64,000 nt of DNA from Escherichia phage moha. The notes beneath the pieces were generated by a model. The model did no database searches. It was not told the origin of the DNA and saw nothing but the letters and a program-made list of their open reading frames with translations. Every line of letters begins with the position of its first letter. The first letter of the stretch is position 1. Positions 6,609 through 37,585 of the stretch are shown here, piece after piece. A program made the position numbers and the translations under genes. The DNA is taken from sequence record MN850590.1, one strand, 5' to 3'.

Positions 6609-6637
6609 TTTACAAACTCTTGAGAGCAGAGTATAAT
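6609..6637 (+). promoter_or_regulatory. early promoter cassette, second copy at 37520
   Basis: -35 TTTACA / 17 bp / -10 TATAAT; IR gagagca..tgctctc around -10. Confidence 0.6.
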
Positions 6638-6678
6638 GCTCTCGTTGGATAATAAACCACCAATTGAAAGGTAATAAT

Positions 6679-7272
6679 ATGAACACACTGAAGAAACTTG
6701 TTGAATTCATCCGCACTAAACTTGGTACTGCTATGGCTAAAAATCTGACTGTCGAAGAACAGTATAACGCAGCTGCAGATAAGTTGATTACCCAAATCAA
6801 AGAACTAAAAACGGCTTCTGTTAAATCTATTAATGAAGAAAAACGTATTCGCGAACTTGTTAATGAAAAGAACAAGCAAGCCGCTTCTAAGGAACGTGAA
6901 ATTCGTAAGCTCCTGGCTGAAGGACAAGATGTTACCATGCATGCTAAGCTTGGTCTTCTGTATCGTCGAACTGCCGAACAACTTAATACAAAAGCTGACG
7001 GGTATGCCGCTATGCGAATTGAAATTGCTCGTAAGGTGGTTGAACTTGATGATGCTCGTCAGAATCTGGCAATCAAACTCGAATACATTCGTGAAACTCG
7101 AGCAGCCAATGCCCTTGGTATCTCTACGGCCGATGATGTAATTGAAATAGCTGCACTGACTAAGGTTGATATCGAAGACACTCTGACTCGTGTTGAAACG
7201 TTCAATGGCACTCCAGCCGGCGTCGAAACCACTTCTGCTGATGTACAAGAATATATTAACTCTTTGAAATAA
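6679..7272 (+). CDS. coiled-coil protein, function unknown
   Basis: 197 aa from ATG 6679 (SD gaaagg); heptad-rich sequence. Confidence 0.8.
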
Positions 7273-7280
7273 AATAATAC

Positions 7281-7302
7281 GGAGGACTCCGGTCCTCCTT
7301 TT
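7281..7302 (+). terminator. rho-independent terminator
   Basis: GGAGGAC-tccg-GTCCTCC followed by TTTT. Confidence 0.7.
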
Positions 7303-7321
7303 GGATAATAAAGGAGTTAAC

Positions 7322-7924
7322 ATGCGAAACCAAAATAATGATATTGACTCAATGTTCGAAGAGTTCCGAGATAAGGTAAATCCACCTACGTCTTTAGTTG
7401 ATTCATTACGATATGTTGCAACCGGACGTAAATGGTACTGGTCGTCTTCTTATGAGACCACCGAGAAAACGGCTAGCCATAGCAGAAAATCTTTATTAGC
7501 CCCAGGTATTATGATTCATGATATCGGAGCTATTGCTAAACTAGTTGCAGACCATGATATTAGATTCACCGATTTCGTTGCTCCTACATGGTCTGTTTGT
7601 TGTTTAAACACTGAATGGGAATATATCAGCGAACGCTCTAAAGATTATTATGGTTTTAGAGATAAGCTTCTGAGGTCTAATATGTTTTATATCGATACAG
7701 AAGTTCTAGTCGATAATAAAAAATATTACTTTACGTTAATCATCGATTCTGAAACTATGTATGAAGGCAAGCCTTTGCTTAAAAGAGTTGATGCTTTAAG
7801 TGCTATTGATGCGCTTTATGAAACTATGGTTGTTAGTCCTAATTTCACTAACAATTTAATCCTTGAGCAATTTATTATGGAATGTAGAGAATATGTCAAA
7901 GCCAACCCTATACATGCCAAGTAA
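7322..7924 (+). CDS. hypothetical protein
   Basis: 200 aa from ATG 7322, SD aaggag. Confidence 0.8.
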   Translation: MRNQNNDIDSMFEEFRDKVNPPTSLVDSLRYVATGRKWYWSSSYETTEKTASHSRKSLLAPGIMIHDIGAIAKLVADHDIRFTDFVAPTWSVCCLNTEWEYISERSKDYYGFRDKLLRSNMFYIDTEVLVDNKKYYFTLIIDSETMYEGKPLLKRVDALSAIDALYETMVVSPNFTNNLILEQFIMECREYVKANPIHAK

Positions 7925-8285
7925 GCCCTGGGCGTATGAATACAAGCGTAAATTAATCCCAAATGAAGTACTATTTGGCCCTATTTTAGCTTTAGCATTT
8001 TTAATCTTTATGATTATAGGAGCTGTTTTAGATTCTAGTGAAGTTATATCGTCTGATGCAGTGTTTTTACTTATTATAGCCGGGTCGTTTATTGTGCCAT
8101 TTTTATTAATGCCTATTAACTGGGTGGGATATTGGTACCAAGGACGTCATTATAGAGCTCGAGTACGCGAATGGAAAATTCAATGTGCAAAAGCTCAAGC
8201 TCAGTATGATGAAGCTGTTAAAAAGTATGAATATGAAGAAGCTATGGAATTCGTTAAGGAAATAAGATGCAAAAGCCTGAACTGA
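7893..8285 (+). CDS. membrane protein
   Basis: 130 aa; two predicted TM helices; start 7893 or 7914 uncertain. Confidence 0.65.
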   Translation: MSKPTLYMPSKPWAYEYKRKLIPNEVLFGPILALAFLIFMIIGAVLDSSEVISSDAVFLLIIAGSFIVPFLLMPINWVGYWYQGRHYRARVREWKIQCAKAQAQYDEAVKKYEYEEAMEFVKEIRCKSLN

Positions 8286-8383
8286 ATTTATGCTGTTTAC
8301 GCTTCTCAAATGATTAGTTATAATGAACTCCTAGCTAGACGTGAAAATGAAACAATCGAAAACTTTATTAAGGAATGTAGAAA

Positions 8384-8689
8384 ATGAGTAAGATTATTGA
8401 AATTAAAGTACCAGAGTTTAATGATGCCAAATCCGCTTCAGATGCAATTTATAAACTTCTGAATCAAGCTGAACGTATCGAAGAAGAAGCAACAAAGATC
8501 GCAGACCAATATGCCGTATCATTTTCTGTAGGTGATTATGGTAGCGGTCGTACTTATTATCCTAAGGGTGAAATCGTATCCCAGTGGATGAAAAATGAAA
8601 TTGAAAATAACGGTGGCGATGTTAAGCGTGAAGGTAATGGTTACATTATTACTGAAGGTGCTTGGGTTTCGTCTTCTGCGTTGTGTTAA
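8384..8689 (+). CDS. small protein, paralog family with C-terminal GWVSSS..C
   Basis: 101 aa ending GAWVSSSALC. Confidence 0.75.
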   Translation: MSKIIEIKVPEFNDAKSASDAIYKLLNQAERIEEEATKIADQYAVSFSVGDYGSGRTYYPKGEIVSQWMKNEIENNGGDVKREGNGYIITEGAWVSSSALC

Positions 8690-8698
8690 GGAATCATT

Positions 8699-8971
8699 AT
8701 GTCTAAAGAACAAACCGAACTGGCTGAAGCTGTAGCAAAAATCTATGCAGCTATTGAGGCTGCCAAAGAAATTGCTGATAAACAAAACACAACATTCAAC
8801 TTGTACCCAGCTTATGGTATGGGTGGAACCTATCATTCACCCGGACATCTTAAAGCCGATCTTGAACGTTGTACAAAAAACGGCTATGCTGAATGGGCTG
8901 ACGTTTACCAATACGACTACAACCTGAGCCTCGAAACTGGTGGTTGGGTCGCATCTTCTCACACTTGCTAA
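8699..8971 (+). CDS. small protein, paralog family with C-terminal GWVSSS..C
   Basis: 90 aa ending GGWVASSHTC. Confidence 0.75.
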   Translation: MSKEQTELAEAVAKIYAAIEAAKEIADKQNTTFNLYPAYGMGGTYHSPGHLKADLERCTKNGYAEWADVYQYDYNLSLETGGWVASSHTC

Positions 8972-8980
8972 GGAAACAAT

Positions 8981-9178
8981 ATGTCTCGTGAATTAGATTG
9001 TGCTGTACGTACGGCAGTAGCTGCCCTGGAAAACCTGTTCCAAATTGCAACAGAAGAACGCGAAGAAGTTACATTATGGATTGAAGATAACGCAGGTCTG
9101 AATCTCCAGGACGCGATCTCATTATCCCACAATAGTATCACTGTTCAAGGCTGGGTATCATCTAGTTATTCTTGCTAA
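8981..9178 (+). CDS. small protein, paralog family with C-terminal GWVSSS..C
   Basis: 65 aa ending QGWVSSSYSC. Confidence 0.75.
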   Translation: MSRELDCAVRTAVAALENLFQIATEEREEVTLWIEDNAGLNLQDAISLSHNSITVQGWVSSSYSC

Positions 9179-9183
9179 AACAG

Positions 9184-9212
9184 TTTACAACAAGATAGGG
9201 CTATGTTATAGT
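9184..9212 (+). promoter_or_regulatory. early promoter cassette (PeSL-like)
   Basis: -35 TTTACA / 17 bp / -10 TATAGT; IR atagggct..agtcctat. Confidence 0.6.
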
Positions 9213-9240
9213 AGTCCTATCAAAACAAATGGAGTCCACA

Positions 9241-9480
9241 ATGATTTATTACGAAAGTATCGGAACCAAAGTGGTTGGTAAAACCATTACTCGTGAAAAG
9301 TTTGCAAAGATATTCGATATGCGTTATAAAAAATCTGAACACAAAGGCATCCGATTCGAAGATGCGCACTGTACAATTTGCCCTTATAATGAAGACATAA
9401 ACGGTACAATCGTTCCATTGGTAGAGGCTTCACATGATGACCTCTGGGATGAATATAATATCGCATGTCGTGAAATTTAA
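9241..9480 (+). CDS. hypothetical protein
   Basis: 79 aa from ATG 9241, SD ggag. Confidence 0.7.
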   Translation: MIYYESIGTKVVGKTITREKFAKIFDMRYKKSEHKGIRFEDAHCTICPYNEDINGTIVPLVEASHDDLWDEYNIACREI

Positions 9481-9508
9481 GTTAATGAATTAATCCGAGG
9501 AAAATATT

Positions 9509-18826: not shown

Positions 18827-19005
18827 AATTAACTAAAGAAGAGAAAGCTAAACTGTTCGAACTTATCCATGACCTATTGGATGAACAAGCAGCCACCAAT
18901 GCGTATGATGAATATGCTCCTTTAACAGATGAAGAATATCAAGCATTGATGGAATCATTTGACAGGAAAGAACAAGAACTCATTGACTACGTGAATTCAC
19001 TATAA
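18823..19005 (+). CDS. hypothetical acidic protein
   Basis: 60 aa; ATGA overlap. Confidence 0.6.
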   Translation: MKLTKEEKAKLFELIHDLLDEQAATNAYDEYAPLTDEEYQALMESFDRKEQELIDYVNSL

Positions 19006-19014
19006 GGGACTCTT

Positions 19015-20151: not shown

Positions 20152-20158
20152 TTTACTA

Positions 20159-20187
20159 GCCCCTTCCGAAAGGTCGGGGCTTTTTGG
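20159..20187 (+). terminator. rho-independent terminator (same sequence as 4946)
   Basis: GCCCC-ttccgaaaggtc-GGGGC TTTTT. Confidence 0.7.
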
Positions 20188-20196
20188 CATCTATCA

Positions 20197-20439: not shown

Positions 20440-20649
20440 ATGCTTTACGATTATACTGGAAAATCTGAAGACGGTGTACTTGAACTTTTACCTGAAAGCG
20501 CTGAAGATGACGATATGGCGATGGTGATGTTTTGTAAAAATGGTCCTGGGGATAAGGGATGGATTTATCTTCGTCAAGAAAATGACTTAATTGTTTTGGA
20601 CCCTAAACAAGTTGAAGAGCTTTATCAACATTTAAAACACAATCGGTAG
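20440..20649 (+). CDS. hypothetical protein
   Basis: 69 aa from ATG 20440, SD gagga. Confidence 0.6.
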   Translation: MLYDYTGKSEDGVLELLPESAEDDDMAMVMFCKNGPGDKGWIYLRQENDLIVLDPKQVEELYQHLKHNR

Positions 20650-20678
20650 TTTACAACTTGATAGGACTATGTTATAGT
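20649..20678 (+). promoter_or_regulatory. early promoter cassette (PeSL-like)
   Basis: -35 GTTTACA / 17 bp / -10 TATAGT; IR ataggact..agtcctat. Confidence 0.6.
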
Positions 20679-20706
20679 AGTCCTATCAAAACAAATGGAG
20701 AACAAA

Positions 20707-20817
20707 ATGAAACTTTTGCTTATCGCTTATGTTGTAGTACAATACAATTATCCGATGTTTACGTATAACATGGTAAATGGTGTAATGAATCTTATTGAAG
20801 CGAGTATGGTAAAATGA
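20707..20817 (+). CDS. possible 36-aa small ORF (not in ORF track)
   Basis: ATG 8 nt after SD ggaga in the conserved cassette; below length cutoff. Confidence 0.35.
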   Translation: MKLLLIAYVVVQYNYPMFTYNMVNGVMNLIEASMVK

Positions 20818-25016: not shown

Positions 25017-25018
25017 TT

Positions 25019-25602: not shown

Positions 25603-25664
25603 ACGCTTTACCCAAGGACGGGTTATAATGGTTCTGAGTTCCAATTCAATCTGAGGAAATAGTT

Positions 25665-26636: not shown

Positions 26637-26638
26637 TA

Positions 26639-26839
26639 ATGGAAATTATTTGTTTTATTTTTGTATATATTGTGTTAGGGTTCATTATAGTAATGATTGG
26701 ACGAAACCACATGGAAATTAGTTCAGGCGGTGAAGCTGTATTTGCCACATTTATTTGGCCTATTCTTGCTTTATTTGGAATAGTTTGGATTGTATCCTGG
26801 CCTTTAGCTAAACTTTATGAAAAAATATTTAGACTATAA
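26639..26839 (+). CDS. small membrane protein
   Basis: 66 aa, two TM helices. Confidence 0.7.
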   Translation: MEIICFIFVYIVLGFIIVMIGRNHMEISSGGEAVFATFIWPILALFGIVWIVSWPLAKLYEKIFRL

Positions 26840-26858
26840 TACGAAAATTGGAACATGT

Positions 26859-26920
26859 AATGAATGCATTAAAATCATAAAACAGTTTACAACCAAGGAT
26901 GGTTGGAGTATAATAAATCT
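26859..26920 (+). repeat. direct repeat copy A (~62 bp), includes promoter
   Basis: near-identical to 27849-27910 (2 mismatches); begins with AATGAATGCATTAAAATCATAA, which in copy B is the 3' coding end of the upstream gene. Confidence 0.85.
26885..26914 (+). promoter_or_regulatory. early promoter
   Basis: -35 GTTTACA / 17 bp / -10 TATAAT. Confidence 0.6.
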
Positions 26921-26940
26921 TTCAACATGAGGAATACAAA

Positions 26941-27870
26941 ATGGCTTTTATTACACGCAAAGAACTTATCAAAGAATTTACTTCGTATAACGACAAAACC
27001 ACCTACCCTAAGCGTAAAGCTCGGACTCCTGCGCAGATTGAACAGATATGTGCGTACTACGGGATTAATTCTCGCAAATTCAGCGACTTTGAATGTGCTA
27101 CCAATGTGCCTGTTAAAGAGCTCACTAAAAATGGCGAGTTCGCTCGTGTTCTGGCTAAACAGAAACTTCGTAATTTTTGTATTGGCGGCGAAGGCCAATA
27201 TTTTGCTAAGCAGTTCCGAAATAACCTTAACAATCTGATGGCTATTGCTTCTCGTATTCGTTCGCAATCAGTTAACATGAAGCATCTGAAGTATACTTAC
27301 GATAAGTTAGAAATCATGGTTATCAGTGAGAACGAGTTCACTCTCACATATAAACCCGAGAACGATAACGTCGCTCGTGTATTCAACCAAGCGTTGGAAG
27401 TGTTAGGCGATAATATTCATCAGATTAAAGCAATTTATTCTCGTGAGCTTAATATTATCGACCCTGTCAAGAATAAGGGTCATATCGCTATTCAAGCTCG
27501 TGTATCTGTTGGTAAAAAAGTTCCTGCACCGTGGTGGCACAAAGACTCTGAGTATTACCAAAATCTTAAAAAGGAAAATGCAATGTTCGAAGGCAATATT
27601 ACAGCAACACCAGTCGGTAATGCAGAGGTTCTAAGCGCATATTCTACTGCTCCATCTATATACACTTCCGCGACGACTAAACTGGAAATCTCTAACAACC
27701 TTCTTCCAGCCGAAGATTACCATTACAACCAAATCAAGGTCACTGTGGACCAACTGTCTGTTGAACTTGACAAAGCACAAGCTAAGCTTCGTGATGCTCA
27801 AAGTGTTGTAACGAATCTCCAGTTGCAGTATTCTAAACTTTTTAACGCAATGAATGCATTAAAATCATAA
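26941..27870 (+). CDS. hypothetical protein with C-terminal coiled coil
   Basis: 309 aa. Confidence 0.85.
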   Translation: MAFITRKELIKEFTSYNDKTTYPKRKARTPAQIEQICAYYGINSRKFSDFECATNVPVKELTKNGEFARVLAKQKLRNFCIGGEGQYFAKQFRNNLNNLMAIASRIRSQSVNMKHLKYTYDKLEIMVISENEFTLTYKPENDNVARVFNQALEVLGDNIHQIKAIYSRELNIIDPVKNKGHIAIQARVSVGKKVPAPWWHKDSEYYQNLKKENAMFEGNITATPVGNAEVLSAYSTAPSIYTSATTKLEISNNLLPAEDYHYNQIKVTVDQLSVELDKAQAKLRDAQSVVTNLQLQYSKLFNAMNALKS

Positions 27871-27910
27871 AATAGTTTACAACCAAGGATGGTTGGAGTA
27901 TAATGAATCT
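27849..27910 (+). repeat. direct repeat copy B
   Basis: see copy A. Confidence 0.85.
27875..27904 (+). promoter_or_regulatory. early promoter
   Basis: -35 GTTTACA / 17 bp / -10 TATAAT. Confidence 0.6.
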
Positions 27911-27932
27911 ATCTTAACGAGAGGAAAATATT

Positions 27933-28883
27933 ATGACACGTTCACATTACATTGAATACTTTGCAGGTCTTATCGCTAACGTTCATGCCCAACGTGCTTC
28001 TGGTGCACTAGGATTTGATGTTCCACACCGAGATGTAGTAAGTGGTATTCTTCGCGATTTTGGTACATACATAGGCCAAGAAAATCATATCTGTAAAGAT
28101 ACTCAAAATGCGTATTCTCATTCGTTAGGGACGTTGCTTCAATGGTTCAAACGTTCTCGTTTATTATCTTCTACTGTAGCTCGCGATAACATTAAAAACT
28201 TTATGAAGCCGAGCTTTATTAAATCTGTGACATCTAAAACCGATTTGGTTGAATTCACTATTGTTAATGATGTTAAAAAGACTCATTTGGCTGATTGGTT
28301 ATCTACCATTCCTGAAACTAAATTTGCTGATAAATTTGCTTGTGAATTCAATAACCAAGTGAATATGCTTTTTAAACATTCTCGTAAATTATTCACAGGC
28401 GGCGATGATCGTACAAATAAAGTTCATGTTAAAGATTGGGTTACTGCAGTATTCAAACCAACCGGTAATGGTAACGCATCATTATCAATTGATATCCAGG
28501 TTCCTTATTACTACTCACGTAATCTCGGTACCATGAAAGCCGAAGAAATTAATAAGCGCAACAAAACCATTCGTTCGCTGTCTTATAAACTTCGCATGAT
28601 GTTAAGAATCATGGACGTGGTAGAAATGTATGATGAAACCGAAGATAATGGTTCAATGTTATACAGTTCTCGCATTCAAATTAAGTTGAAGAACCCTAAC
28701 GAGTATAAGCCTAAGCCTATTAAAGAGCCTAAAGCAGAAAAAGTTGATAACTTAAGAGAAGAACGCGAATATCTCAAATCTCGTCTGAAAGAAGTCGAAG
28801 CCCAGATTGCAGAACAAACTAAATCGTTAAAAGCTCTGAATGCGAAAGCGGATGGTTTACGAAATGCCATTGAGGTGTTATAA
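27933..28883 (+). CDS. hypothetical protein with C-terminal coiled coil
   Basis: 316 aa. Confidence 0.85.
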   Translation: MTRSHYIEYFAGLIANVHAQRASGALGFDVPHRDVVSGILRDFGTYIGQENHICKDTQNAYSHSLGTLLQWFKRSRLLSSTVARDNIKNFMKPSFIKSVTSKTDLVEFTIVNDVKKTHLADWLSTIPETKFADKFACEFNNQVNMLFKHSRKLFTGGDDRTNKVHVKDWVTAVFKPTGNGNASLSIDIQVPYYYSRNLGTMKAEEINKRNKTIRSLSYKLRMMLRIMDVVEMYDETEDNGSMLYSSRIQIKLKNPNEYKPKPIKEPKAEKVDNLREEREYLKSRLKEVEAQIAEQTKSLKALNAKADGLRNAIEVL

Positions 28884-29188
28884 TGAAACTACGTCTTTTA
28901 GAGGATATTGATATGAGCACTAATCATGGCTTGGTTAAGTTTATTGACGATAGTTCAAAGATTGAATTTGTTCAGCGAGATAAAATCCACGGTGAAGAAG
29001 AGTTCGTTCCTCCGGCATGGAACGAAATAATGAAAATGGTTGAACGACGTGAAAATGCTGCCAAATCGGCAGCAAAACATCCATGTCCGGAATGTGGAAC
29101 TATCCAAGTCCAACTGGTTAACTGGACCAGTGATAACTTGAAATTGAAATGCCGTAAATGCTTCCACAAATTTGAGAGAACATTATAA
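28883..29188 (+). CDS. zinc-ribbon protein
   Basis: 101 aa; CPECG...CRKC. Confidence 0.75.
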   Translation: MKLRLLEDIDMSTNHGLVKFIDDSSKIEFVQRDKIHGEEEFVPPAWNEIMKMVERRENAAKSAAKHPCPECGTIQVQLVNWTSDNLKLKCRKCFHKFERTL

Positions 29189-29601
29189 TGAGATATAGCC
29201 TTCGTTGTTTTATCGCAGCTTTAGTTTTTGCTATTATTCCATTCATTTGGAACAGCCAGAATACTTACATGGAAACTAAAGTAATTCCTGTGGAGGTAGT
29301 GGAATTAATCTCAGGTCAATCTACAGGAAAATATTCTAAATTAGAATTTATTGCAGTCTATAAAGATGAGCAAGGACGAGTTTTTGACAGGCGTGTATCG
29401 CCATCGTTTTATACGCTTCTGAATAAAGGTGATACGATAGCTATAGAAATTCGTGAGATGGATATCAAACAAACTACCAAAGATAACTTGATTTGGTTCT
29501 TTGGTACAGTGTTGTTGGTTTCTATCTGTATCACAGGTTTTATTACATGTATTGTATTTGGCATTGCATATTTAATTGATGAAAGGAAAAATAATGTTTA
29601 A
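29188..29601 (+). CDS. membrane protein
   Basis: 137 aa; N- and C-terminal TM helices. Confidence 0.75.
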   Translation: MRYSLRCFIAALVFAIIPFIWNSQNTYMETKVIPVEVVELISGQSTGKYSKLEFIAVYKDEQGRVFDRRVSPSFYTLLNKGDTIAIEIREMDIKQTTKDNLIWFFGTVLLVSICITGFITCIVFGIAYLIDERKNNV

Positions 29602-29857
29602 AGTGTACGGGTATGACTCTACTATTCATAAATGCATTTATTGTGATAATGCGAAACGATTGCTGACTGTTAAGAAACAACCATTCGAATTCATTAATGT
29701 TATGCCGGAAAAAGGTGTGTTCGATGATGAGAAAATTACTGAGCTTCTGGTTAAGCTTGGACGTGAATCACAAGTTGGATTGACTATGCCTCAGGTGTTT
29801 GCTCCTGACGGAAGTCACATTGGTGGATTTGACCAACTACGAGAATATTTTAAATGA
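29594..29857 (+). CDS. nrdC: thioredoxin/glutaredoxin NrdC
   Basis: 87 aa; MFKVYGYDS..HKCIYCDNAKRLL matches T4 NrdC. Confidence 0.9.
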   Translation: MFKVYGYDSTIHKCIYCDNAKRLLTVKKQPFEFINVMPEKGVFDDEKITELLVKLGRESQVGLTMPQVFAPDGSHIGGFDQLREYFK

Positions 29858-30150
29858 GTATTGATTTAACTTTCCCTGGCCCTTATGACCAGGGTGAATT
29901 AGAAGCTTTATTATATCAAGAAATGTGCTCTCGTGCCAAGAACGATATTCAGTATGCTATCGATAATCCATGGGGCGAATTTCGAGTAATGATGGGTAAT
30001 CGAATCATCGGTGTCCAATGGCGATTCGTTGGCCTTGAGCCTGAGGACTATGAAGAAAACGAGCACGGTGACTGGATTCCTGTTGGTGAATATCACTGGG
30101 AATACGGTGGTCCTGATTTTGAAGTCTCTTGTTCATGGGTAGAACAATAA
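29854..30150 (+). CDS. hypothetical protein
   Basis: 98 aa; ATGA overlap. Confidence 0.7.
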   Translation: MSIDLTFPGPYDQGELEALLYQEMCSRAKNDIQYAIDNPWGEFRVMMGNRIIGVQWRFVGLEPEDYEENEHGDWIPVGEYHWEYGGPDFEVSCSWVEQ

Positions 30151-30168
30151 CCTGCTAGAAAATTTTAA

Positions 30169-30525
30169 ATGACATATTCATTAAATCTTAAAGATTTCCA
30201 AGATGTATACGAAGTTTGTGCCAATGAACTTGGTCCTGATGCTCCAACTATTATTGAAGTTTTAAATGTGCTCCCTTCATCATTAGCTTACGAAGCCAAA
30301 TCATGGGGATGGAACGACACTGTCGTTCGTGATGACCTTTACGTCCTGATGAACGACATGATGGTTAAAAAGGCAGAACCGGTTGCACCAATGGTTACCA
30401 TTACCGTTGAAGAATATAATCGCCTGCAAGCCATTGAAGAGCTTCTGTGGAACATTGAATGTGACCTGCCGTCAGGGCTAGAATCCTGGATTGATTATGA
30501 AGAGCTCAATAAACTCCGGGGTTAA
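30169..30525 (+). CDS. hypothetical protein
   Basis: 118 aa. Confidence 0.7.
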   Translation: MTYSLNLKDFQDVYEVCANELGPDAPTIIEVLNVLPSSLAYEAKSWGWNDTVVRDDLYVLMNDMMVKKAEPVAPMVTITVEEYNRLQAIEELLWNIECDLPSGLESWIDYEELNKLRG

Positions 30526-30574
30526 GCCATGGTATTCGGCTCGATGGGAGACAGTCGAGCCAGACGTCGAAACA

Positions 30575-30604
30575 GTTTACAACGACGAAGAAACGTGTTA
30601 TGAT
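30575..30604 (+). promoter_or_regulatory. early promoter
   Basis: -35 GTTTACA / 17 bp / -10 TATGAT; preceded by hairpin GGCTCGA..TCGAGCC. Confidence 0.5.
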
Positions 30605-30653
30605 GAACCTTCAATAAATGAATTAATTGATATGGAGATGGGAAGAGATTATT

Positions 30654-30824
30654 ATGCAAGTTAAATTATTGTACCGTTTATTAAAAAGTGGCGAACACGA
30701 TTGGTATTTGCTTATTAAAACCGATCCGAATTTTTTCTCTGGACAACCATTTACAGTTCGTCCTACTAAACGTCAGCTTCGCAAAGCTAAACGTTCTCAT
30801 CGTAACTTTTATAGAGAATATTGA
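30654..30824 (+). CDS. small basic protein, RPTKRQ-motif family
   Basis: 56 aa ending VRPTKRQLRKAKRSHRNFYREY. Confidence 0.6.
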   Translation: MQVKLLYRLLKSGEHDWYLLIKTDPNFFSGQPFTVRPTKRQLRKAKRSHRNFYREY

Positions 30825-30825
30825 T

Positions 30826-31239
30826 ATGAATATTTCTGAAACTCGCGGTAAATGGTTCAAGATTGTTAAAGAAGATGAAGAACTACAAGTCAAGTTTCCT
30901 GAATTAAAGAAAGATACGATCATCAAGGTAATTGGTACTACTACCGAAGATGGTTATGGCGACCATGGCATTATTGAAGTGATGTTGAACACAGGTGAGA
31001 AACTTTGCATCTATGACCGTGATACTTCTCTTTGGTGCTTCTGGGAATCCCATTCAATAGATGAACTCGAAGAAATTGACCAAGTAGTTTGTGATGGTGG
31101 ACTTGGCGAATTCGAAGGTGAACGTATTTCTTATGCTTTAGCTAAATTAGCCGCCCAAGAAAATAATGACGGTTATGAAGGTAATCTGATGCAAGCCGCA
31201 GCGGAATACATTGAATATTTAGAAAGACGTTTAAGTTAA
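30826..31239 (+). CDS. hypothetical protein
   Basis: 137 aa from ATG 30826. Confidence 0.75.
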   Translation: MNISETRGKWFKIVKEDEELQVKFPELKKDTIIKVIGTTTEDGYGDHGIIEVMLNTGEKLCIYDRDTSLWCFWESHSIDELEEIDQVVCDGGLGEFEGERISYALAKLAAQENNDGYEGNLMQAAAEYIEYLERRLS

Positions 31240-31248
31240 AGGTTTATT

Positions 31249-31428
31249 ATGAAAACTGAACTATTTTATGGCGAAAGAACAAACGGCCAAAAATCCTGGA
31301 AATTTATTATGATTGGGGCTCCAAACAATCCGAACATGAGGACTTCAATCATTTCGGTAACACGTCCTACTAAAAGAATGATTCGACAGTATAAACGTTT
31401 TCATCGAGACTTTTATAACGTTTACTAA
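31249..31428 (+). CDS. small basic protein, RPTKRQ-motif family (not in ORF track)
   Basis: 59 aa, SD aaagg; ends TRPTKRMIRQYKRFHRDFYNVY. Confidence 0.5.
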   Translation: MKTELFYGERTNGQKSWKFIMIGAPNNPNMRTSIISVTRPTKRMIRQYKRFHRDFYNVY

Positions 31429-31430
31429 AT

Positions 31431-31438
31431 TATAAATA
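31431..31438 (+). promoter_or_regulatory. late promoter box upstream of gene 49
   Basis: exact TATAAATA 29 bp before ATG. Confidence 0.5.
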
Positions 31439-31467
31439 CCCTTATCTATATATGGTAAGGGTTTATT

Positions 31468-31941
31468 ATGTTATTATCTGGCAAATTATACAAAGAAGAA
31501 AAACAAAAATTTTATGATGCACAGAATGGTAAGTGTCCTATTTGCCACCGTGAATTAGACTCTGATGTTCAAGGTAACCATCTTGACCACGACCACGAAT
31601 TAAACGGGCCAAAAGCCGGTAGAGTTCGTGGATTACTCTGTAATCTGTGCAACGCAGCAGAAGGCCAAATGAAGCATAAGTTCAATCGTTCCGGTCTTAA
31701 AGGACGTGATGTTGACTACCTCGAATGGCTTGAAGCTCTTCTTGCTTATTTGAAACAAGATTATTCTGATAATAATATCCATCCTAATTTTGTTCCAGAC
31801 AAAACTAAAGAGTTCTCAAGACTAGGTAAAGAGGAAATGATGGCTGAGATGCTTCAAAGAGGATTTGAATATAATGAATCTGACACCAAAACACAGTTAA
31901 TAGCTTCATTTAAGAAGCAACTTAGAAAGAGTTTAAAATGA
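31468..31941 (+). CDS. 49: endonuclease VII (Holliday junction resolvase) gp49
   Basis: 157 aa; CPICHREL..HLDHDHELNG...CNLCN zinc/His-Me region as in T4 endo VII. Confidence 0.9.
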   Translation: MLLSGKLYKEEKQKFYDAQNGKCPICHRELDSDVQGNHLDHDHELNGPKAGRVRGLLCNLCNAAEGQMKHKFNRSGLKGRDVDYLEWLEALLAYLKQDYSDNNIHPNFVPDKTKEFSRLGKEEMMAEMLQRGFEYNESDTKTQLIASFKKQLRKSLK

Positions 31942-33755
31942 CAATTGAAAAAGAAATTGAAGGATTGATTCATAAAACTAATAAAGACCTTTTAAACGAG
32001 AATGCTAATAAAGATTCTCGTGTTTTTCCAACTCAACGGGACCTTATGGCTGGTATTGTGTCTAAACACATTGCCAAAAATATGGTCCCGTCTTTTATTA
32101 TGAAAGCGCATGAAAGCGGAATTATCCATTTCCACGATATTGATTATTCCCCTGCTCTTCCGTTTACTAATTGCTGTTTAGTCGATTTAAAGGGGATGCT
32201 TGAGAACGGATTTAAATTAGGCAATGCTCAAATTGAAACGCCTAAATCGATTGGTGTTGCTACTGCAATTATGGCACAAATTACTGCACAAGTTGCTTCC
32301 CATCAATACGGCGGAACGACTTTTGCTAATGTAGATAAAGTACTTTCTCCTTATGTTAAACGCACCTATGCAAAACATATTGAGGATGCAGAAAAATGGC
32401 AAATCGCTGATGCGTTGAATTATGCTCAATCTAAAACAGAAAAAGATGTATACGATGCATTCCAAGCTTATGAATATGAAGTAAATACTCTTTTTAGTTC
32501 AAACGGGCAAACGCCTTTTGTAACAATTACATTTGGTACGGGAACTGACTGGACTGAACGAATGATTCAGAAAGCAATTCTGAAAAATCGTATTAAAGGT
32601 CTTGGTCGTGATGGGATAACTCCTATTTTTCCTAAACTTGTTATGTTTGTTGAAGAAGGTGTTAATCTTTATAAAGATGATCCAAACTATGATATTAAAC
32701 AACTTGCGTTAGAATGTGCAAGCAAAAGAATGTATCCTGACATTATTTCGGTTAAGAATAATAAAGCTATTACCGGCTCATCTATTCCTGTTTCTCCAAT
32801 GGGTTGTCGTAGTTTCTTGAGCGTATGGAAAGATTCGACTGGTAATGAAATTCTTGATGGACGTAATAATCTTGGTGTTGTAACACTGAATCTTCCTCGT
32901 ATCGCATTAGATTCTTATATTGGAACCCAGTTCAATGAACAGAAATTTGTTGAATTATTCAATGAACGAATGGATTTATGTTTTGAAGCATTGATGTGCA
33001 GAATTAGTTCCTTAAAAGGAGTTAAAGCGACTGTTGCTCCTATTCTTTACCAAGAAGGTGCATTCGGGGTTCGTCTTAAACCTGATGACGACATAATTGA
33101 GTTATTTAAAAACGGTAGAAGTTCAGTGTCTTTAGGGTACATTGGTATTCACGAATTGAATATTCTTGTCGGTCGTGATATTGGGCAAGAAATTTTAACT
33201 AAAATGAATGCTCATCTTAAGCAGTGGACCGAAAGAACTGGATTTGCTTTTAGTTTATATTCTACTCCTGCTGAAAACCTTTGTTATCGCTTCTGTAAAC
33301 TCGATACAGAAAAATATGGAAGCGTAAAAGATGTTACTGATAAAGGCTGGTACACTAATAGTTTCCATGTTTCAGTAGAAGAAAATATTACTCCGTTTGA
33401 AAAGATTTCTCGTGAAGCGCCATATCATTTCATTGCGACAGGTGGTCACATTTCTTACGTTGAACTTCCTGATATGAAAAATAACCTAAAAGGTCTTGAG
33501 GCCGTGTGGGATTATGCTGCACAACATTTAGATTATTTTGGTGTTAATATGCCAGTAGATAAATGTTTTACATGCGGAAGTACCCATGAAATGACTCCTA
33601 CTGAAAACGGATTTGTTTGTTCTATTTGTGGAGAAACTGATCCTAAAAAGATGAACACAATAAGAAGAACATGCGGATATCTTGGAACTCCTAGCGTTGT
33701 TCCATGGAATTTAGGTAAAATGAAAGAAATGGTAAAACGAGTAAAACATGCATAG
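31938..33755 (+). CDS. nrdD: anaerobic ribonucleoside-triphosphate reductase NrdD
   Basis: 605 aa, uninterrupted; C-terminal glycyl radical motif RRTCGYLG and Cys cluster CFTCG..CSICG. Confidence 0.95.
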   Translation: MTIEKEIEGLIHKTNKDLLNENANKDSRVFPTQRDLMAGIVSKHIAKNMVPSFIMKAHESGIIHFHDIDYSPALPFTNCCLVDLKGMLENGFKLGNAQIETPKSIGVATAIMAQITAQVASHQYGGTTFANVDKVLSPYVKRTYAKHIEDAEKWQIADALNYAQSKTEKDVYDAFQAYEYEVNTLFSSNGQTPFVTITFGTGTDWTERMIQKAILKNRIKGLGRDGITPIFPKLVMFVEEGVNLYKDDPNYDIKQLALECASKRMYPDIISVKNNKAITGSSIPVSPMGCRSFLSVWKDSTGNEILDGRNNLGVVTLNLPRIALDSYIGTQFNEQKFVELFNERMDLCFEALMCRISSLKGVKATVAPILYQEGAFGVRLKPDDDIIELFKNGRSSVSLGYIGIHELNILVGRDIGQEILTKMNAHLKQWTERTGFAFSLYSTPAENLCYRFCKLDTEKYGSVKDVTDKGWYTNSFHVSVEENITPFEKISREAPYHFIATGGHISYVELPDMKNNLKGLEAVWDYAAQHLDYFGVNMPVDKCFTCGSTHEMTPTENGFVCSICGETDPKKMNTIRRTCGYLGTPSVVPWNLGKMKEMVKRVKHA

Positions 33756-34578
33756 GTATTATATAATTTATAAAATAACAAATATAATTAATTCAAAGGA
33801 ATATATCGGTGCGCATAGCACCGATAACATAAATGACGGTTATATGGGGTCAGGAACATTGATTCGTGCCGCTTTATTAAAATATGGTAGAAAAAATTTT
33901 AATAAAGAAATTTTACATGTTTTTGATAATGAAAAACAAATGTATGATAAAGAAGCTGAACTTGTAACCGAAGAGTATTGTCTAAAAGAAAATACATATA
34001 ATATTAAACCTGGTGGAAAAGGTGGAACTGCCTATGAACAGACACTTGAACATCGCCGTAAAAATAGTTTAGCAAATAAAGGTAAAAAGAGAACAGAAGA
34101 AACTAAAATAGCTATTTCACGTGCTTTAAAGAAATATAAACGTACGCCAGAGCATCAAGCAAATTTAAATAAAGCCGTAAGCATAGCTATGAAGCGAAAA
34201 GATGTTAGAAGTAAATTAGCTGGAGAGCGGTCTGAGAAAGATAAATTATCTATATCAAACGGTGTTAAAAAATATTACAATTCTTTGAGTGAAGAAGAAC
34301 GCGAACTTCATCGCAAGCGAATTATTGAAGGTAAAAAGAATTCTCCCATGTCATTGGAATCTAGACAAAAGCTTTCAAAAGCTTTAAAAGGGCTTCAAGT
34401 TGGTTCAAAAAATCCAATGTATGGAAAAATTTCTCCAACTAGCAAAACCGTTTCAGTTGACGGTATTAAATATGATTCAATTAAAAAGTGCTCAAATGCC
34501 ATAAAAGTTTCTAGACATCTTATACTAAAACGCTGTAATTCTACTGATGAAGCTTGGAAAAATTGGATATTATTATGA
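33748..34578 (+). CDS. free-standing GIY-YIG homing endonuclease (Seg-like)
   Basis: 276 aa; IIY..(10)..YIGAHS GIY-YIG motif; repeated basic helix motifs in C-terminal half; overlaps nrdD stop by 8 nt. Confidence 0.85.
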   Translation: MHRYYIIYKITNIINSKEYIGAHSTDNINDGYMGSGTLIRAALLKYGRKNFNKEILHVFDNEKQMYDKEAELVTEEYCLKENTYNIKPGGKGGTAYEQTLEHRRKNSLANKGKKRTEETKIAISRALKKYKRTPEHQANLNKAVSIAMKRKDVRSKLAGERSEKDKLSISNGVKKYYNSLSEEERELHRKRIIEGKKNSPMSLESRQKLSKALKGLQVGSKNPMYGKISPTSKTVSVDGIKYDSIKKCSNAIKVSRHLILKRCNSTDEAWKNWILL

Positions 34579-35045
34579 ATTATGATAGATTTTATCCTTG
34601 CGATTTTGTGAATGGCCCTGGTTGCAGGGTCGTTCTTTTCGTTACAGGTTGTTTGCATAAATGCGAAGGGTGTTATAATAAATCAACATGGAATGCTAGA
34701 AATGGTATTCCATTCACCGGAGAGACACTAGAACAATTAATTGAATGTTTGAATAATGATTATATAGAAGGATTGACTATAACCGGAGGTGACCCTCTCT
34801 ATCCTGATAACAGAGATGTGATTCACTCTGTGGTTCAAACTATTAAAAATCTTTATCCCAATAAAAGCATTTGGCTGTGGACAGGATATAAGTTTGAAGA
34901 TATTAAACAGCTAGAAATGCTTAAATATGTTGATGTTATTATTGATGGGAAGTATGAGAAAAATCTTCCGACTAAAAAGCTGTGGCGAGGATCAGATAAT
35001 CAGCGACTTTGGTCAAATACCGATGGGGTGTGGAAACATGATTAA
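34575..35045 (+). CDS. nrdG: anaerobic RNR activating enzyme NrdG (radical SAM)
   Basis: 156 aa from ATG 34575; CLHKCEGC cluster motif. Confidence 0.9.
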   Translation: MNYDRFYPCDFVNGPGCRVVLFVTGCLHKCEGCYNKSTWNARNGIPFTGETLEQLIECLNNDYIEGLTITGGDPLYPDNRDVIHSVVQTIKNLYPNKSIWLWTGYKFEDIKQLEMLKYVDVIIDGKYEKNLPTKKLWRGSDNQRLWSNTDGVWKHD

Positions 35046-35155
35046 ATTGAATTACATTATGGATACTATAAATGATATGATTTTTCGTTTTGGTCCAGAA
35101 TTTTATTCGCAATATAGTTTAATGATTATCAATGCTTAGTTAATTAAGGGTAAAT

Positions 35156-35371
35156 ATGTACAAATTTCGTAAAGGTTTAGCTGATTTTCTTACAACTGTA
35201 ACGTTCTTTTTGTTTATGGCAGTTGGAGCTATTTTTCTTATTCCTTTTACTGGTGTATTTTTCGTGATTAGTTTAATTTCTCCAGAAAAGGGTTTATCCT
35301 CCAGCGAATTCAATGAACGTTTGGACAAAATTACTAATAAACTGAATTCTGTTCTTGATAAAAAGGCTTAA
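35156..35371 (+). CDS. small membrane protein
   Basis: 71 aa. Confidence 0.7.
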   Translation: MYKFRKGLADFLTTVTFFLFMAVGAIFLIPFTGVFFVISLISPEKGLSSSEFNERLDKITNKLNSVLDKKA

Positions 35372-35373
35372 TT

Positions 35374-35691
35374 ATGATTAGTTTTGAGCGGTATGTAGTA
35401 GAGAGTTGGAATGGTTTTGATATGTTCGGTAATGACTATTATTTCTATGAATGTAGTCTGAACCCAAGCTTCTGGGCTGGACGTGAACAAGACCTCGAAG
35501 AAATCAACGCCCGTGCCGATTTGTTAGGTGAACTGCCTACGGTTTATTTTACCTTTGATGAATCCGGCTTCGTTATCCAGGTTTATTTTCCTGAAGAAAA
35601 CTCTGGTGAGGATTCTGTTAATCCTCCTTATTGGGCTTACCAAGGAATTATTTCTCGTGGAACAAAACTCGAACTTAAAGAACAAGATTGA
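35374..35691 (+). CDS. hypothetical protein
   Basis: 105 aa. Confidence 0.7.
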   Translation: MISFERYVVESWNGFDMFGNDYYFYECSLNPSFWAGREQDLEEINARADLLGELPTVYFTFDESGFVIQVYFPEENSGEDSVNPPYWAYQGIISRGTKLELKEQD

Positions 35692-35980
35692 AATTTATGG
35701 CATCCCTGAAGAAGTTGGACGTTGTCCAGGATGTTATACTGTTACAAAACTTTTAAAGGAGCTCAATGCTCCTTATACATTTTATAAAGTCCTCACTAAT
35801 AATGGTAAGATTGAATATGACCGTCCTTTAATCGTATCTCTTGCTAAACGTGCAGGATTCACTTCACTTAATATTCGTTATCCTGTCATATTTTTAAATG
35901 ATAAGAAACAAAAGAATATTGCAGAGTTTAAAAAGTCCTTGATTTCATTAGGATATGACTCTGATATCATAGAAGATTGA
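35657..35980 (+). CDS. nrdH: glutaredoxin-like protein (NrdH-like), start uncertain
   Basis: KIEIYG...CPGCY redoxin motif; only in-frame start near domain is GTG 35657; listed ATG 35528 would overlap upstream gene by 164 nt. Confidence 0.5.
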   Translation: MEQNSNLKNKIEIYGIPEEVGRCPGCYTVTKLLKELNAPYTFYKVLTNNGKIEYDRPLIVSLAKRAGFTSLNIRYPVIFLNDKKQKNIAEFKKSLISLGYDSDIIED

Positions 35981-36004
35981 CCAGGTGCCGCCTGGTCTTC
36001 TTTA
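35978..36004 (+). terminator. terminator-like hairpin
   Basis: GACCAGG-tgccg-CCTGGTC then TTCTTT. Confidence 0.5.
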
Positions 36005-36090
36005 TCTCATTTCTAATATAATCCATTGGAATCTTCACTTCACTATCTCCTTGTGCCCCTCTCAAATCAAAAAAATATTTTCATAAAACA

Positions 36091-36119
36091 GTTTACATCC
36101 TCGATAGATATGTTAAGAT
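36091..36119 (+). promoter_or_regulatory. early promoter
   Basis: -35 GTTTACA / 16 bp / -10 TAAGAT. Confidence 0.45.
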
Positions 36120-36148
36120 TAACACCATCTACCGCAGAGGAAAATAAA

Positions 36149-36331
36149 ATGACAATTGAAGATAAAGAAATTAAGGTTGACCAGTACTATTCTGTCAATG
36201 GTAATGCCATACAGATAACCAGAGTTTCAAGCCTGGATGTTTGGTACCGTTCAATCAAATATCCAGAAATTGGTGAAATGCTTTGTGACCGTGGTATCTT
36301 CTGTTCAATTGCGAAGGAAATTAAGTCATGA
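36149..36331 (+). CDS. hypothetical protein
   Basis: 60 aa from ATG 36149, SD agagga. Confidence 0.6.
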   Translation: MTIEDKEIKVDQYYSVNGNAIQITRVSSLDVWYRSIKYPEIGEMLCDRGIFCSIAKEIKS

Positions 36332-36576
36332 TTAGTTTAGATTCAAAGAAAGTTGTTCTAACCCTTAAAGTTAATGACGAGCGTCCGATATTCATTACCA
36401 TTTCCGATTTGAACGTTGAAATTGCTAATGGCGTTCGTACTTATCAAGCAAATAAAACTCATTGGGATTATATCCCGATGTTGACGCTTACTCAGCGTTT
36501 AGAATCAATCGGTCTTAAAGACCTTTCAGTAAGTGAAGTGAATTTTATCAAACGCGTTGTATCAATCAACCTCTGA
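36328..36576 (+). CDS. hypothetical protein
   Basis: 82 aa; ATGA overlap. Confidence 0.65.
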   Translation: MISLDSKKVVLTLKVNDERPIFITISDLNVEIANGVRTYQANKTHWDYIPMLTLTQRLESIGLKDLSVSEVNFIKRVVSINL

Positions 36577-36583
36577 GGTACTT

Positions 36584-36877
36584 ATGGGTAAAACATATCG
36601 TCGTAAAGATTTGAAAGTTCGCGATTACGACTATTTTGGTAAGCGTAAAGCTCCTGACGGTGTTAGCCACAAAGACATGGTTGAAAACATCTTCCGCTCA
36701 GATAAATGGAAACGTATGAAAGGCGTTGATTCTGAAGTCAAGAATGAAATGAATCGACAACTCCGCAAAGAAGTTCGTAAGTTGAAAAAAGATGTTTACA
36801 GTAAAGAAGAGTATGATTATAATACTTCTCATACTGAAGCCAAACGTAAAGCTAACGAATGTTATCGTTACAGTTGA
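36584..36877 (+). CDS. basic protein
   Basis: 97 aa from ATG 36584; Lys/Arg-rich. Confidence 0.7.
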   Translation: MGKTYRRKDLKVRDYDYFGKRKAPDGVSHKDMVENIFRSDKWKRMKGVDSEVKNEMNRQLRKEVRKLKKDVYSKEEYDYNTSHTEAKRKANECYRYS

Positions 36878-36884
36878 GGAAATT

Positions 36885-37019
36885 ATGAATATCAAACGAA
36901 TGCTTTTTAAGCAGGGATTATATACTTTAAATGTTAATCCAAAGGGTGATACAACTAAATGGTCTGTAAATGACTGGATTAAGTTCATCGATGAAAATGG
37001 GGCCTGGAACACAAAATGA
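36885..37019 (+). CDS. possible 44-aa protein
   Basis: ATG 36885 with SD gaggaaa; longer listed ORF overlaps upstream gene. Confidence 0.45.
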   Translation: MNIKRMLFKQGLYTLNVNPKGDTTKWSVNDWIKFIDENGAWNTK

Positions 37020-37216
37020 ATCCTGAATCTATGTTATCGCAAAAGCTTCGTGAAGAACGTGCCGAATTCTTTGCCAATATGAAACTCAACGGTGTTGAGG
37101 ACGAAGACTTCTTACGCTGGTTCTGGATTTACAAATACAAAGAATGCCAGCACGCTGTACTACTGACTTGTGCAGTTATGTACGAAGGCTGGAAAGGCGC
37201 TAAAAAGTTCGGTTAA
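37016..37216 (+). CDS. hypothetical protein
   Basis: 66 aa; ATGA overlap. Confidence 0.6.
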   Translation: MNPESMLSQKLREERAEFFANMKLNGVEDEDFLRWFWIYKYKECQHAVLLTCAVMYEGWKGAKKFG

Positions 37217-37279
37217 TAATGTACAACGATAGGAAGACATGTTATTATCTTCCTATCGTCTTAAAATGAGGAAAATATC

Positions 37280-37519
37280 ATGGCCCAAGAATTAGATTTT
37301 ATCAAATTCAAAAAACACCTCGACGTTAAAATTGGGGATTCAATTGTTAGGATTGAGTATGACATTTTAACAGATGCTATTACTGTTAGTTGTGATGGAA
37401 ATAGTTTCAGCTTCGATACAACCGAAAACAAATACCCAATCTATAAAGGCATCTTTGATATGGGTGTTGATATTACTCCACGTGATACAAATTACTTACT
37501 TTTCATGCTTAAAAAATAG
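37280..37519 (+). CDS. hypothetical protein
   Basis: 79 aa, SD gaggaaa. Confidence 0.7.
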   Translation: MAQELDFIKFKKHLDVKIGDSIVRIEYDILTDAITVSCDGNSFSFDTTENKYPIYKGIFDMGVDITPRDTNYLLFMLKK

Positions 37520-37548
37520 TATACAAACTCTTGAGAGATGAGTATAAT
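37520..37548 (+). promoter_or_regulatory. early promoter cassette, near-identical to 6609
   Basis: -35 TATACA / 17 bp / -10 TATAAT; IR gagaga..tctctc. Confidence 0.55.
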
Positions 37549-37585
37549 TCTCTCGTTGGATAATAAAATAACCGAGGAAAATAAT

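Follow-up and report, generated by a model that had tools for sequence, protein, structure and literature searches.

A promoter-hairpin cassette repeated at two distant loci of Escherichia phage moha probably belongs to the PeSL type and lies at recombination joints of small gene modules

We describe a promoter-hairpin cassette that occurs twice in a stretch of 64,000 nucleotides of Escherichia phage moha (sequence record MN850590.1), which was analysed as a whole and is called the window below. The two segments, copy A and copy B, are very probably copies of one subfamily of the T-even early-promoter cassettes known as PeSLs ('promoter-early stem-loop'), situated at recombination joints of small gene modules. 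Observed are the repeat itself, its match to a promoter, a selected helix, multiple genomic contexts, arm signatures that follow the genus, and indel junctions. The mechanism, modular shuffling mediated by PeSLs, has already been published (PMC2839356, PMC4122927). This had been missed in an earlier note on the same DNA, as had the selected hairpin and a conserved element in the 5' leader. The parts of both copies are as follows.

6595-6656, + strand: copy A of the repeat, TGATTAAAAAATAATTTACAAACTCTTGAGAGCAGAGTATAATGCTCTCGTTGGATAATAAA
6606-6608, + strand: copy A, stop codon TAA within AAAAAATAA, ending directly before the -35 hexamer
6609-6614, + strand: copy A, -35 box TTTACA
6621-6644, + strand: copy A, hairpin with 5' arm T-GAGAGC (6621-6627), loop AGAGTATAAT holding the -10 box, and 3' arm GCTCTC-G (6638-6644)
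6632-6637, + strand: copy A, -10 box TATAAT
6647-6656, + strand: copy A, leader element GGATAATAAA
37506-37567, + strand: copy B of the repeat, TGCTTAAAAAATAGTATACAAACTCTTGAGAGATGAGTATAATTCTCTCGTTGGATAATAAA
37517-37519, + strand: copy B, stop codon TAG within AAAAAATAG, ending directly before the -35 hexamer
37520-37525, + strand: copy B, -35 box TATACA
37532-37555, + strand: copy B, hairpin with 5' arm T-GAGAGA and 3' arm TCTCTC-G
37543-37548, + strand: copy B, -10 box TATAAT
37558-37567, + strand: copy B, leader element GGATAATAAA

Local alignment of 650 nt around each copy gives a single gap-free block in which 56 of 62 bases are identical, and nothing in the flanks aligns outside this block. 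The repeat finder likewise returns the copies as a two-copy family at 90% identity. The identity spans the AT-rich region with the stop codon, the entire 17-nt spacer, the six bases after the -10 box and GTTGGATAATAAA, and the shared sequence extends into the first 13 transcribed bases as counted from the predicted start. Because it runs through spacer, post--10 bases and early leader in this way, the objection that the similarity is confined to the -35 and -10 hexamers fails. The earlier note had placed near-identical cassettes at 6609-6660 and 37520-37570, each upstream of an unrelated open reading frame (ORF). This description holds: the coordinates are right to within a few bases, with the repeat starting 14 nt further upstream, and the two downstream ORFs, homologues of T4 e.6 and 55.2, give no alignment at an expectation value (E) of 100 or below. 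The two upstream ORFs (6381-6608 and 37280-37519) are likewise unrelated. A pattern for the 45-nt core with three free positions has exactly two matches in the window, against 0.00 expected from 100 dinucleotide-preserving shuffles; a chance match was rejected. We also built a covariance model of the cassette family from homologues elsewhere and ran it on the window with filters off; it scores copy A at 78.2 bits and copy B at 74.3 bits, while the next-best match in the window reaches 13.8 bits. Searches against Rfam returned two tRNAs and no other match over the whole window at the gathering threshold, and no match at E <= 1 in the region 6400-6800.

Both copies have their parts in the same order: the upstream stop codon in an A-rich stretch, the -35 box, the 17-nt spacer, the -10 box and the leader, with an inverted repeat that brackets the -10 box. 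The promoter scan counts 11 of 12 matches to the sigma-70 consensus in copy A and 10 of 12 in copy B. The extended -10 motif TGn is absent from both, the sequence at this position being GAGTATAAT. By this match to the consensus each copy is classed as a sigma-70-type early promoter, and the site of copy A is annotated in ATK47 as resembling the host promoter consensus. The predicted start, placed by its spacing to the -10 box, is a purine 7 nt after that box and just past the 3' arm (base 6644 in copy A, 37555 in copy B). The leader would then begin with (G/A)UUGGAUAAUAAA and run for about 20-30 nt up to the Shine-Dalgarno sequence, which is followed by the ATG. Its first part, TTGGATAATAAA, is shared, and 11-16 nt of locus-specific leader separate this part from the Shine-Dalgarno sequence.

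The helix that encloses the -10 box comprises 6-7 bp in both copies. Its innermost pair is C-G in copy A and A-T in copy B, which is a double compensating change. The predicted RNA stability is -12.6 kcal/mol (z -3.5) for copy A and -8.5 kcal/mol (z -1.7) for copy B, the latter being the weakest of a family that ranges up to -19.7 kcal/mol (the T4 copy; a Gaprivervirus copy has -18.3 kcal/mol). Predicted folds extend the helix outwards, with UCU or CUCU of the invariant spacer pairing with GGA or GGAG of the leader; in the T4 fold this outer helix is ACUCU/GGAGU.

Homologues for a closer analysis of the pairing were collected from annotated phage records and from scans of IMG/VR and a metagenome collection with the pattern CAAACTCTNGNNNNNNGAGTATAAT, in which the 5' arm is unspecified and beyond which the 3' arm lies. 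Together these yielded 73 instances with 24 distinct 40-nt cores, and pairing was tallied on the ungapped alignment of these cores (7 pairs x 24 = 168 cells). The 7-pair helix is formed in 99.4% of the cells, and at four of the seven pairs both sides have changed (G-C/A-U; A-U/G-C; G-C/C-G/U-A; C-G/U-A/A-U). In a control with the 3' partner slid by 1-3 columns, pairing amounts to 38-51%. None of 500 shuffles reached the observed pairing or covariation score, a figure that is not a probability because the aligned cores are related. Cells outside the Watson-Crick set consist of 23 G-U wobbles versus a single C-A mismatch. As the 23 wobbles are mismatches on the opposite strand, the constraint acts on the sense strand. 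These patterns indicate that the hairpin itself is under selection, probably as sense-strand RNA. Such selection was assumed, without a test, in the original PeSL papers, and the compensatory changes reported here address it.

Since the predicted start lies just past the 3' arm, the RNA made from the cassette promoter would be without the hairpin, and only RNA that reads through from upstream could fold it. From the upstream promoters at 6324 and 37220 up to the cassettes, the terminator scan finds no + strand terminators, so that read-through RNA should exist.

A search of related genomes finds the cassette at variable positions. In T-even phages of four genera it precedes seven unrelated genes (motB, 55.2, e.6, ndd, a 99-aa ORF in the pseT region, a 153-aa ORF after pseT.2, and SP18 gp277) and is itself preceded by at least 12 different upstream genes. 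Four copies are present in the genome of Shigella phage JK45, at e.6, 55.2, the pseT region and ndd, and one is present in T4, on the minus strand of the record between motB.1 and motB. The published work on MotB gives no mapping of this T4 promoter. The motB-cef intergenic region was also considered as the T4 counterpart and was rejected; it holds a different hairpin promoter.

The variants of the arms and of the 3' flank track the genus and not the locus. The e.6, 55.2 and ndd copies of Mosigvirus have the arms GAGAGC/GCTCTC, the e.6 copy of Tequatrovirus has GGGAGT/ACTCCC, the 55.2 copy of Dhakavirus has GGGACC/GGTCC(C/T), and the ndd and motB copies of Gaprivervirus both have GGGGTC/GACCCC followed by ACTGGAG. 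Per 45 nt, the mean number of mismatches is 6.8 between different loci of one genus versus 11.55 between different genera at the same locus. Over the 45 nt compared, no base differs between the e.6 copy of ATK47 and the 55.2 copy of G2285. Likeness of this kind within a genus is predicted by exchange between copies inside a lineage.

With 99-99.9% identity, the window matches JK45 and RB69-like T-even phages in the genus Mosigvirus (MM02, mar005P1, G53, APCEc01); the value is about 99.5% for MM02, mar005P1 and JK45, and JK45 is its closest full-length match. The counterpart of the window in JK45 (about 79.7-15.7 kb) is reverse-complemented, and early transcription therefore runs along the + strand of the window. 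The record of JK45 (NC_054940) is filed under Tequatrovirus and the near-identical MM02, mar005P1 and CEV1 under Mosigvirus, a label that looks inconsistent. Copy A lies just 3' of tRNA genes within the e.x cluster of small ORFs, and copy B lies within the 55.x cluster just 5' of gene 55 (38463-39038). In T4-type genomes these two clusters are classic examples of hyperplastic regions. The genes around the copies are listed here, together with the tRNA genes; in ATK47 an rnaC-like small RNA is annotated just 3' of the site equivalent to the latter.

4117-4268: two tRNA genes (Met and Arg according to the MM02 and ATK47 annotation)
6381-6608, + strand: Frd3-family coding sequence (CDS; PF05798), upstream of copy A
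6668-6671, + strand: Shine-Dalgarno AAGG of the e.6 homologue (ATG at 6679)
6679-7272, + strand: gene after copy A, homologue of T4 e.6 (ATK47 annotation, homology), 197 aa, no Pfam family
37280-37519, + strand: 79-aa ORF (= RB69ORF075c), upstream of copy B
37574-37577, + strand: Shine-Dalgarno GAGG of the 55.2 homologue (ATG at 37586)
37586-37918, + strand: gene after copy B, homologue of T4 55.2 (homology), 110 aa, DUF7570

Recombination-mediated spread, as suggested in the earlier note, gains support from the many contexts, from the likeness within genera and from junctions of module-sized indels that fall inside cassettes. The modules concerned lie directly 5' of the two copies.

6318-6608, + strand: module 5' of copy A (T2 alignment), consisting of another early promoter-hairpin cassette and the Frd3-family CDS
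6324-6329 (-35) and up to 6352 (end of -10), + strand: cassette in this module
6318-6329 and 6603-6614, + strand: 12-nt direct repeat AAATAATTTACA (stop codon and -35 box) bounding the module
37220-37521, + strand: module 5' of copy B (G2285 comparison), consisting of a different promoter-hairpin cassette and the 79-aa ORF

T2 aligns to 6078-6329 and to 6603-7367 in pieces that overlap by 12 nt in T2, and hence T2 is without 6330-6602. The segment it lacks is a complete module, in which the Frd3-family gene follows the rest of the other promoter-hairpin cassette. Homologues of frd.3 with 48-59% amino acid identity exist in Tequatrovirus, Dhakavirus and Gaprivervirus, where they lie at about 146 kb in the neighbourhood of frd and gene 32. 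The sole copy of Mosigvirus is the one found here, beside the tRNA/e.x region at about 72 kb. By this comparison of gene positions, frd.3 has been translocated to the site of copy A in Mosigvirus. CEV1 and Jbel are without 6177-6343 and have a single chimeric cassette, the left half of which is like promoter 6111 and the right half like 6324. At copy B, the module has a promoter of the form TGTACA-17-TATTAT with a 12-bp stem (ACGATAGGAAGA/TCTTCCTATCGT). G2285, which is 98% identical to the window, is without 295 bp (37227-37521), with the junction in TACAA of the -35 box, and has the cassette directly between 55.3 and 55.2. The 79-aa ORF that is absent from G2285 is found only in Mosigvirus, with two alleles at the same site (96% or more and about 60% amino acid identity). 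The e.6 site itself is also variable: T4 has an unrelated promoter with its own stem bracketing the -10 box, in JK08 the 3' half of the cassette (a half-cassette remnant) comes after a new promoter, and T2 has the cassette with a 5-nt deletion in the spacer.

These properties can be compared with those of known systems. PeSL cassettes were described in RB49 and phi1 (Arbiol et al. 2010, PMC2839356) and comprise a sigma-70-like early promoter, preceded by a stop codon within AT-rich sequence and followed by the Shine-Dalgarno sequence and ATG of the next gene. Their stem-loop commonly overlaps the -10 box, and G-T pairs were noted in the stems (PMC2839356, PMC4122927). For some of them promoter and terminator activity was shown, along with cassette-flanked indels, chimeric cassettes and excised mini-circles (PMC2839356). 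Comeau et al. 2014 (PMC4122927) reported PeSLs in T4/PST (TTTACW-N17-TAYWAT with AGNA/TCNT stems) and in KVP40/nt-1, including half cassettes. Copies A and B carry every sequence-level PeSL feature. Both lie between small early ORFs of a hyperplastic region, each with the preceding stop codon inside AT-rich sequence just before the -35 box; in sequence, copy A matches the T-even form exactly and copy B is one base off at the -35 box; a stem-loop with compensatory changes at four of its seven pairs lies over the -10 box; and the Shine-Dalgarno sequence and ATG of the next small ORF form the 3' end. The cassette also repeats across hyperplastic regions, has indel or replacement junctions between close relatives, and occurs in chimeric and half forms. 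Differences concern the lineage, as the RB69-like Mosigvirus is mentioned in neither paper, and the stem, which is GAGAG(C/A)/(G/T)CTCTC here, GGGG/CCCC in RB49 and AGNA/TCNT in PST. Moreover, the activities and mini-circles of RB49 are experimental, whereas the cassette here is known from sequence. Our comparison follows one subfamily over four genera and before seven genes. Compensatory changes, homogenisation of copies and RegB are discussed in neither PMC2839356 nor PMC4122927.

Canonical T4 early promoters (Pe) have been described as 'uber' UP/-35/TGn/-10 promoters (Hinton 2010, PMC2988021). The cassette resembles them in its AT-rich upstream region, (G)TTTAC-type -35 box, 17-nt spacer, consensus -10 box and position before early genes on the early strand, and T4 itself has a copy before motB. 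It differs by the lack of TGn and, in copy B, by TATACA as -35 box, and a structured element that brackets the -10 box is not described in PMC2988021. With Rho-independent terminators the cassette shares an intergenic stem-loop at the end of the upstream gene, but its stem is modest, the loop measures 8-10 nt and no U-run follows. Identity as an intrinsic terminator was rejected because of this missing U-run and because the terminator scan leaves the stem uncalled. The T4 late promoters of e, soc, 49 and I-TevI are embedded in hairpins, such that the ribosome binding site (RBS) is hidden in read-through RNA and free in RNA from the internal promoter. The likeness is that a promoter lies inside a hairpin that would form only in read-through RNA, giving two functionally different mRNAs from one segment. 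However, the 3' arm of copies A and B ends about 25-30 nt before the Shine-Dalgarno sequence and would not sequester the RBS, and the cassette promoter is of the early (sigma-70) kind where those of T4 are late (gp55).

From these data we infer a role of the hairpin at the RNA level and recombination as the mechanism of spread. Right after infection, host RNA polymerase would fire the cassette promoters, so that e.6 is expressed from copy A and 55.2 from copy B. The hairpin would form only in the sense read-through RNA that starts at the promoter of the upstream gene, and there it would most likely act as an attenuator or as a 3'-end barrier that insulates adjacent modules. The cassettes would further be crossover points at which modules of a promoter plus a small ORF insert, are deleted or move, since about 50 nt of near-identical sequence recurs in the genome and T4 recombination requires only short homology. 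Inside a lineage, the copies may homogenise each other.

Several points weigh against this interpretation. Whether the promoter is active, where transcription starts and whether the hairpin terminates or attenuates are all predicted from the nucleotide sequence. The weak hairpin of copy B is missing from the minimum-energy fold modelled for a 141-nt context, and its -35 box deviates from the TTTACW of the published T-even PeSL consensus. After the 3' arm comes GTTGGATAA with no U-run, and the terminator scan calls neither cassette hairpin, whereas it does call the one at 7281-7298. Kinship within the covariation set makes the shuffle control overstate significance, although the slid controls and several independent pair types concur. 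The genus labels of some IMG/VR contigs were inferred from cassette and gene patterns. Finally, the junction at copy B has only 5 nt of shared sequence, which also fits illegitimate recombination.

Other explanations account for parts of the data. Strong promoters might have become alike independently by selection to one optimum, with neither shared ancestry nor exchange. The fact that T4 early promoters share a consensus beyond the hexamers (PMC2988021) speaks for such convergence, and the invariance of AACTCT and GAGTATAAT in the collected copies is uninformative on this point because the search pattern required both. The other early promoters of the window nevertheless differ in spacer, stem and leader, and the family model gives them at most 13.8 bits against 74-78 for the two copies. 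Furthermore, the arms are free to vary as long as they pair, yet one arm variant and one 3' flank are found per genus, as ancestry or exchange, but not convergence, would produce. We therefore consider convergence very unlikely. The same holds for the view that the inverted repeat is an operator, bound as DNA by a dimeric phage or host protein that shuts the promoter, with no nucleic-acid hairpin involved. Overlap with the -10 box is a classic repressor position, and the shut-off of T4 early promoters is incompletely understood (PMC3014915, PMC2988021). A protein site would however keep its bases rather than its pairing, while the arms GAGAGC, GAGAGA, GGGACC, GGGAGT and GGGGTC each come with a matching partner. 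The asymmetry between G-U and C-A cells is also unexpected for a palindrome in duplex DNA, which leaves an operator highly improbable.

A miniature transposable or homing element, inserting itself instead of being a passive substrate of homologous recombination, would explain the many genomic contexts and perhaps the 12-nt direct repeat that flanks the frd.3 module. This repeat, however, belongs to both promoters (stop codon and -35 box) and is not a target-site duplication. The cassette ends are without terminal inverted repeats, no transposase or homing endonuclease is associated with it at either locus, and it always has one orientation, directly before a gene start. An autonomous element is in our view scarcely probable at all, and we retain the interpretation as PeSL-type cassettes that recombine through their homology.

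The leader may add a further layer to this interpretation. Its conserved element is GGAUAAUAAA(A/C) and takes the forms GGAUUAUAAAA, GGAGUAUAAAA, GGAGAAUAAAC and GGAGCACAAAA in other genera. Strong intergenic sites of RegB/S1 have the consensus GG*AGRAYARAA with cuts at GGAG/U, and secondary structure protects them (Durand et al. via PMC3014915). Scored as GG*AG/U-RAYARAA, copy B (GGATAATAAAA) agrees at all 11 positions and copy A at 10 of them; all seven cassette contexts have at least 9 of 11, with GGAG and GGAU alternating, as counted by eye on the collected cores. The motif GGAKRAYARAA occurs six times in the window against 0.87 expected; at three of these places it is a Shine-Dalgarno site, as is usual for RegB targets. 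For TGGATAATAAA there are only three occurrences in the window, with 0.27 expected. In the predicted fold of the promoter's own leader the RegB-like site is unstructured. In PP01 (Tequatrovirus) a true terminator replaces the cassette before 55.2 and is followed by the same GGATAATAAA. Two further features of the window touch this subject, the first of which bears only on the speculative reading of the leader.

17016-17474, + strand: regB endoribonuclease gene (PF10715, E 2.1e-69)
7281-7312, + strand: intrinsic terminator hairpin (7281-7298), T-run and third TGGATAATAAA copy (7302-7312), upstream of the e.5 homologue

A tentative proposal is that the GGA(U/G)-A-rich element is a RegB/S1 site, through which two mRNA populations of one gene would decay differently. 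The site would be exposed in the immediate-early transcript and partly masked in read-through RNA, where its GGA would pair with UCU of the spacer. The consensus matches, the excess of the motif in a window that also encodes regB, the published protection of structured sites from RegB cleavage (PMC3014915) and the presence of the outer helix in the folds (UCU/GGA, or ACUCU/GGAGU in T4) are consistent with this. On the other hand, AT-rich leaders often have A-rich sequence past GGA, the outer helix has just 3 bp in the window copies and is lost in the 141-nt context fold, and RB69-type RegB is described as divergent (PMC3014915). The element is also found after plain terminators and is possibly just inherited leader sequence. 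On balance we regard the decay switch as unlikely. Its fuller form, in which the cassette would be a two-state RNA device giving a short-lived immediate-early mRNA and a RegB-resistant read-through mRNA of the same gene, is more doubtful still.

Beside these leader data we note that the PP01 terminator before 55.2 is followed by TTTTTGGATAATAAA (L015, about 712-740) and that T4 has a hairpin followed by TTGGAGTAAATA before e.5 (L010, about 2110-2135). A GGA(G/U)-A-rich leader is thus repeatedly found behind a hairpin, be it that of a terminator or that of a promoter. Just upstream of regB, the ORF at 16311-16745 contains an Acb2/Tad1 hairpin domain (PF24729, E 1.4e-17); proteins of this family are sponges directed against CBASS and Thoeris.

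The window contains more cassettes of related design. At the + strand promoters 13494, 16960, 20198, 59490, 5551, 59056 and 36092, helices of up to 14-16 bp (-18 to -22 kcal/mol) enclose the -10 box, and the Shine-Dalgarno sequence for the following gene (GGAG/GAGG) is part of their 3' arm. The RBS would consequently be hidden in read-through RNA and accessible in RNA that starts at the promoter itself. Promoter 16960 is predicted to drive regB. In a census of helices enclosing the -10 box at promoter-like sites of the window, the criterion of at least six pairs is passed by 54% of random 62-mers, so that this census is a list of visible examples and not a statistic. A second and larger PeSL subfamily in the window has the form GTTTACA...GATAGGACTATGTTATAGTAGTCCTATCAAAACAAATGGAG, with 6-9 copies and up to 100% identity over 28 nt. 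Its sites are given below.

2253-2300: second-subfamily site
2613-2675: second-subfamily site
6322-6384: second-subfamily site
9182-9244: second-subfamily site
10477-10539: second-subfamily site
20648-20710: second-subfamily site
61006-61068: second-subfamily site

Two other repeats were observed. A terminator-like hairpin of 34 nt, TAGCCCCTTCCGAAAGGTCGGGGCTTTTTGGCAT, is identical at 4945-4978 and 20157-20190, 15 kb apart, and has a third copy at 5488-5521 with 76% identity. The 65-nt promoter regions 26859-26923 and 27849-27913 (AATGAATGCATTAAAATCATAAAACAGTTTACAACCAAGGATGGTTGGAGTATAAT...) lie 990 bp apart and are 95% identical; this duplicated early promoter has a hairpin CAACCA/TGGTTG inside the spacer.

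Taken together, the cassettes would act as portable promoter-hairpin linkers, by which a small accessory gene arrives with its own expression signal in T4-type phages, and the mechanism of shuffling can be read from the junctions in an RB69-like genome. The published PeSL model is thereby extended to another lineage and sharpened, and current understanding is not overturned. Through the RegB-like leader, module shuffling may be linked to the decay of early mRNA. If this were true, the portable module would bring its own programme of timing and decay wherever recombination places it.

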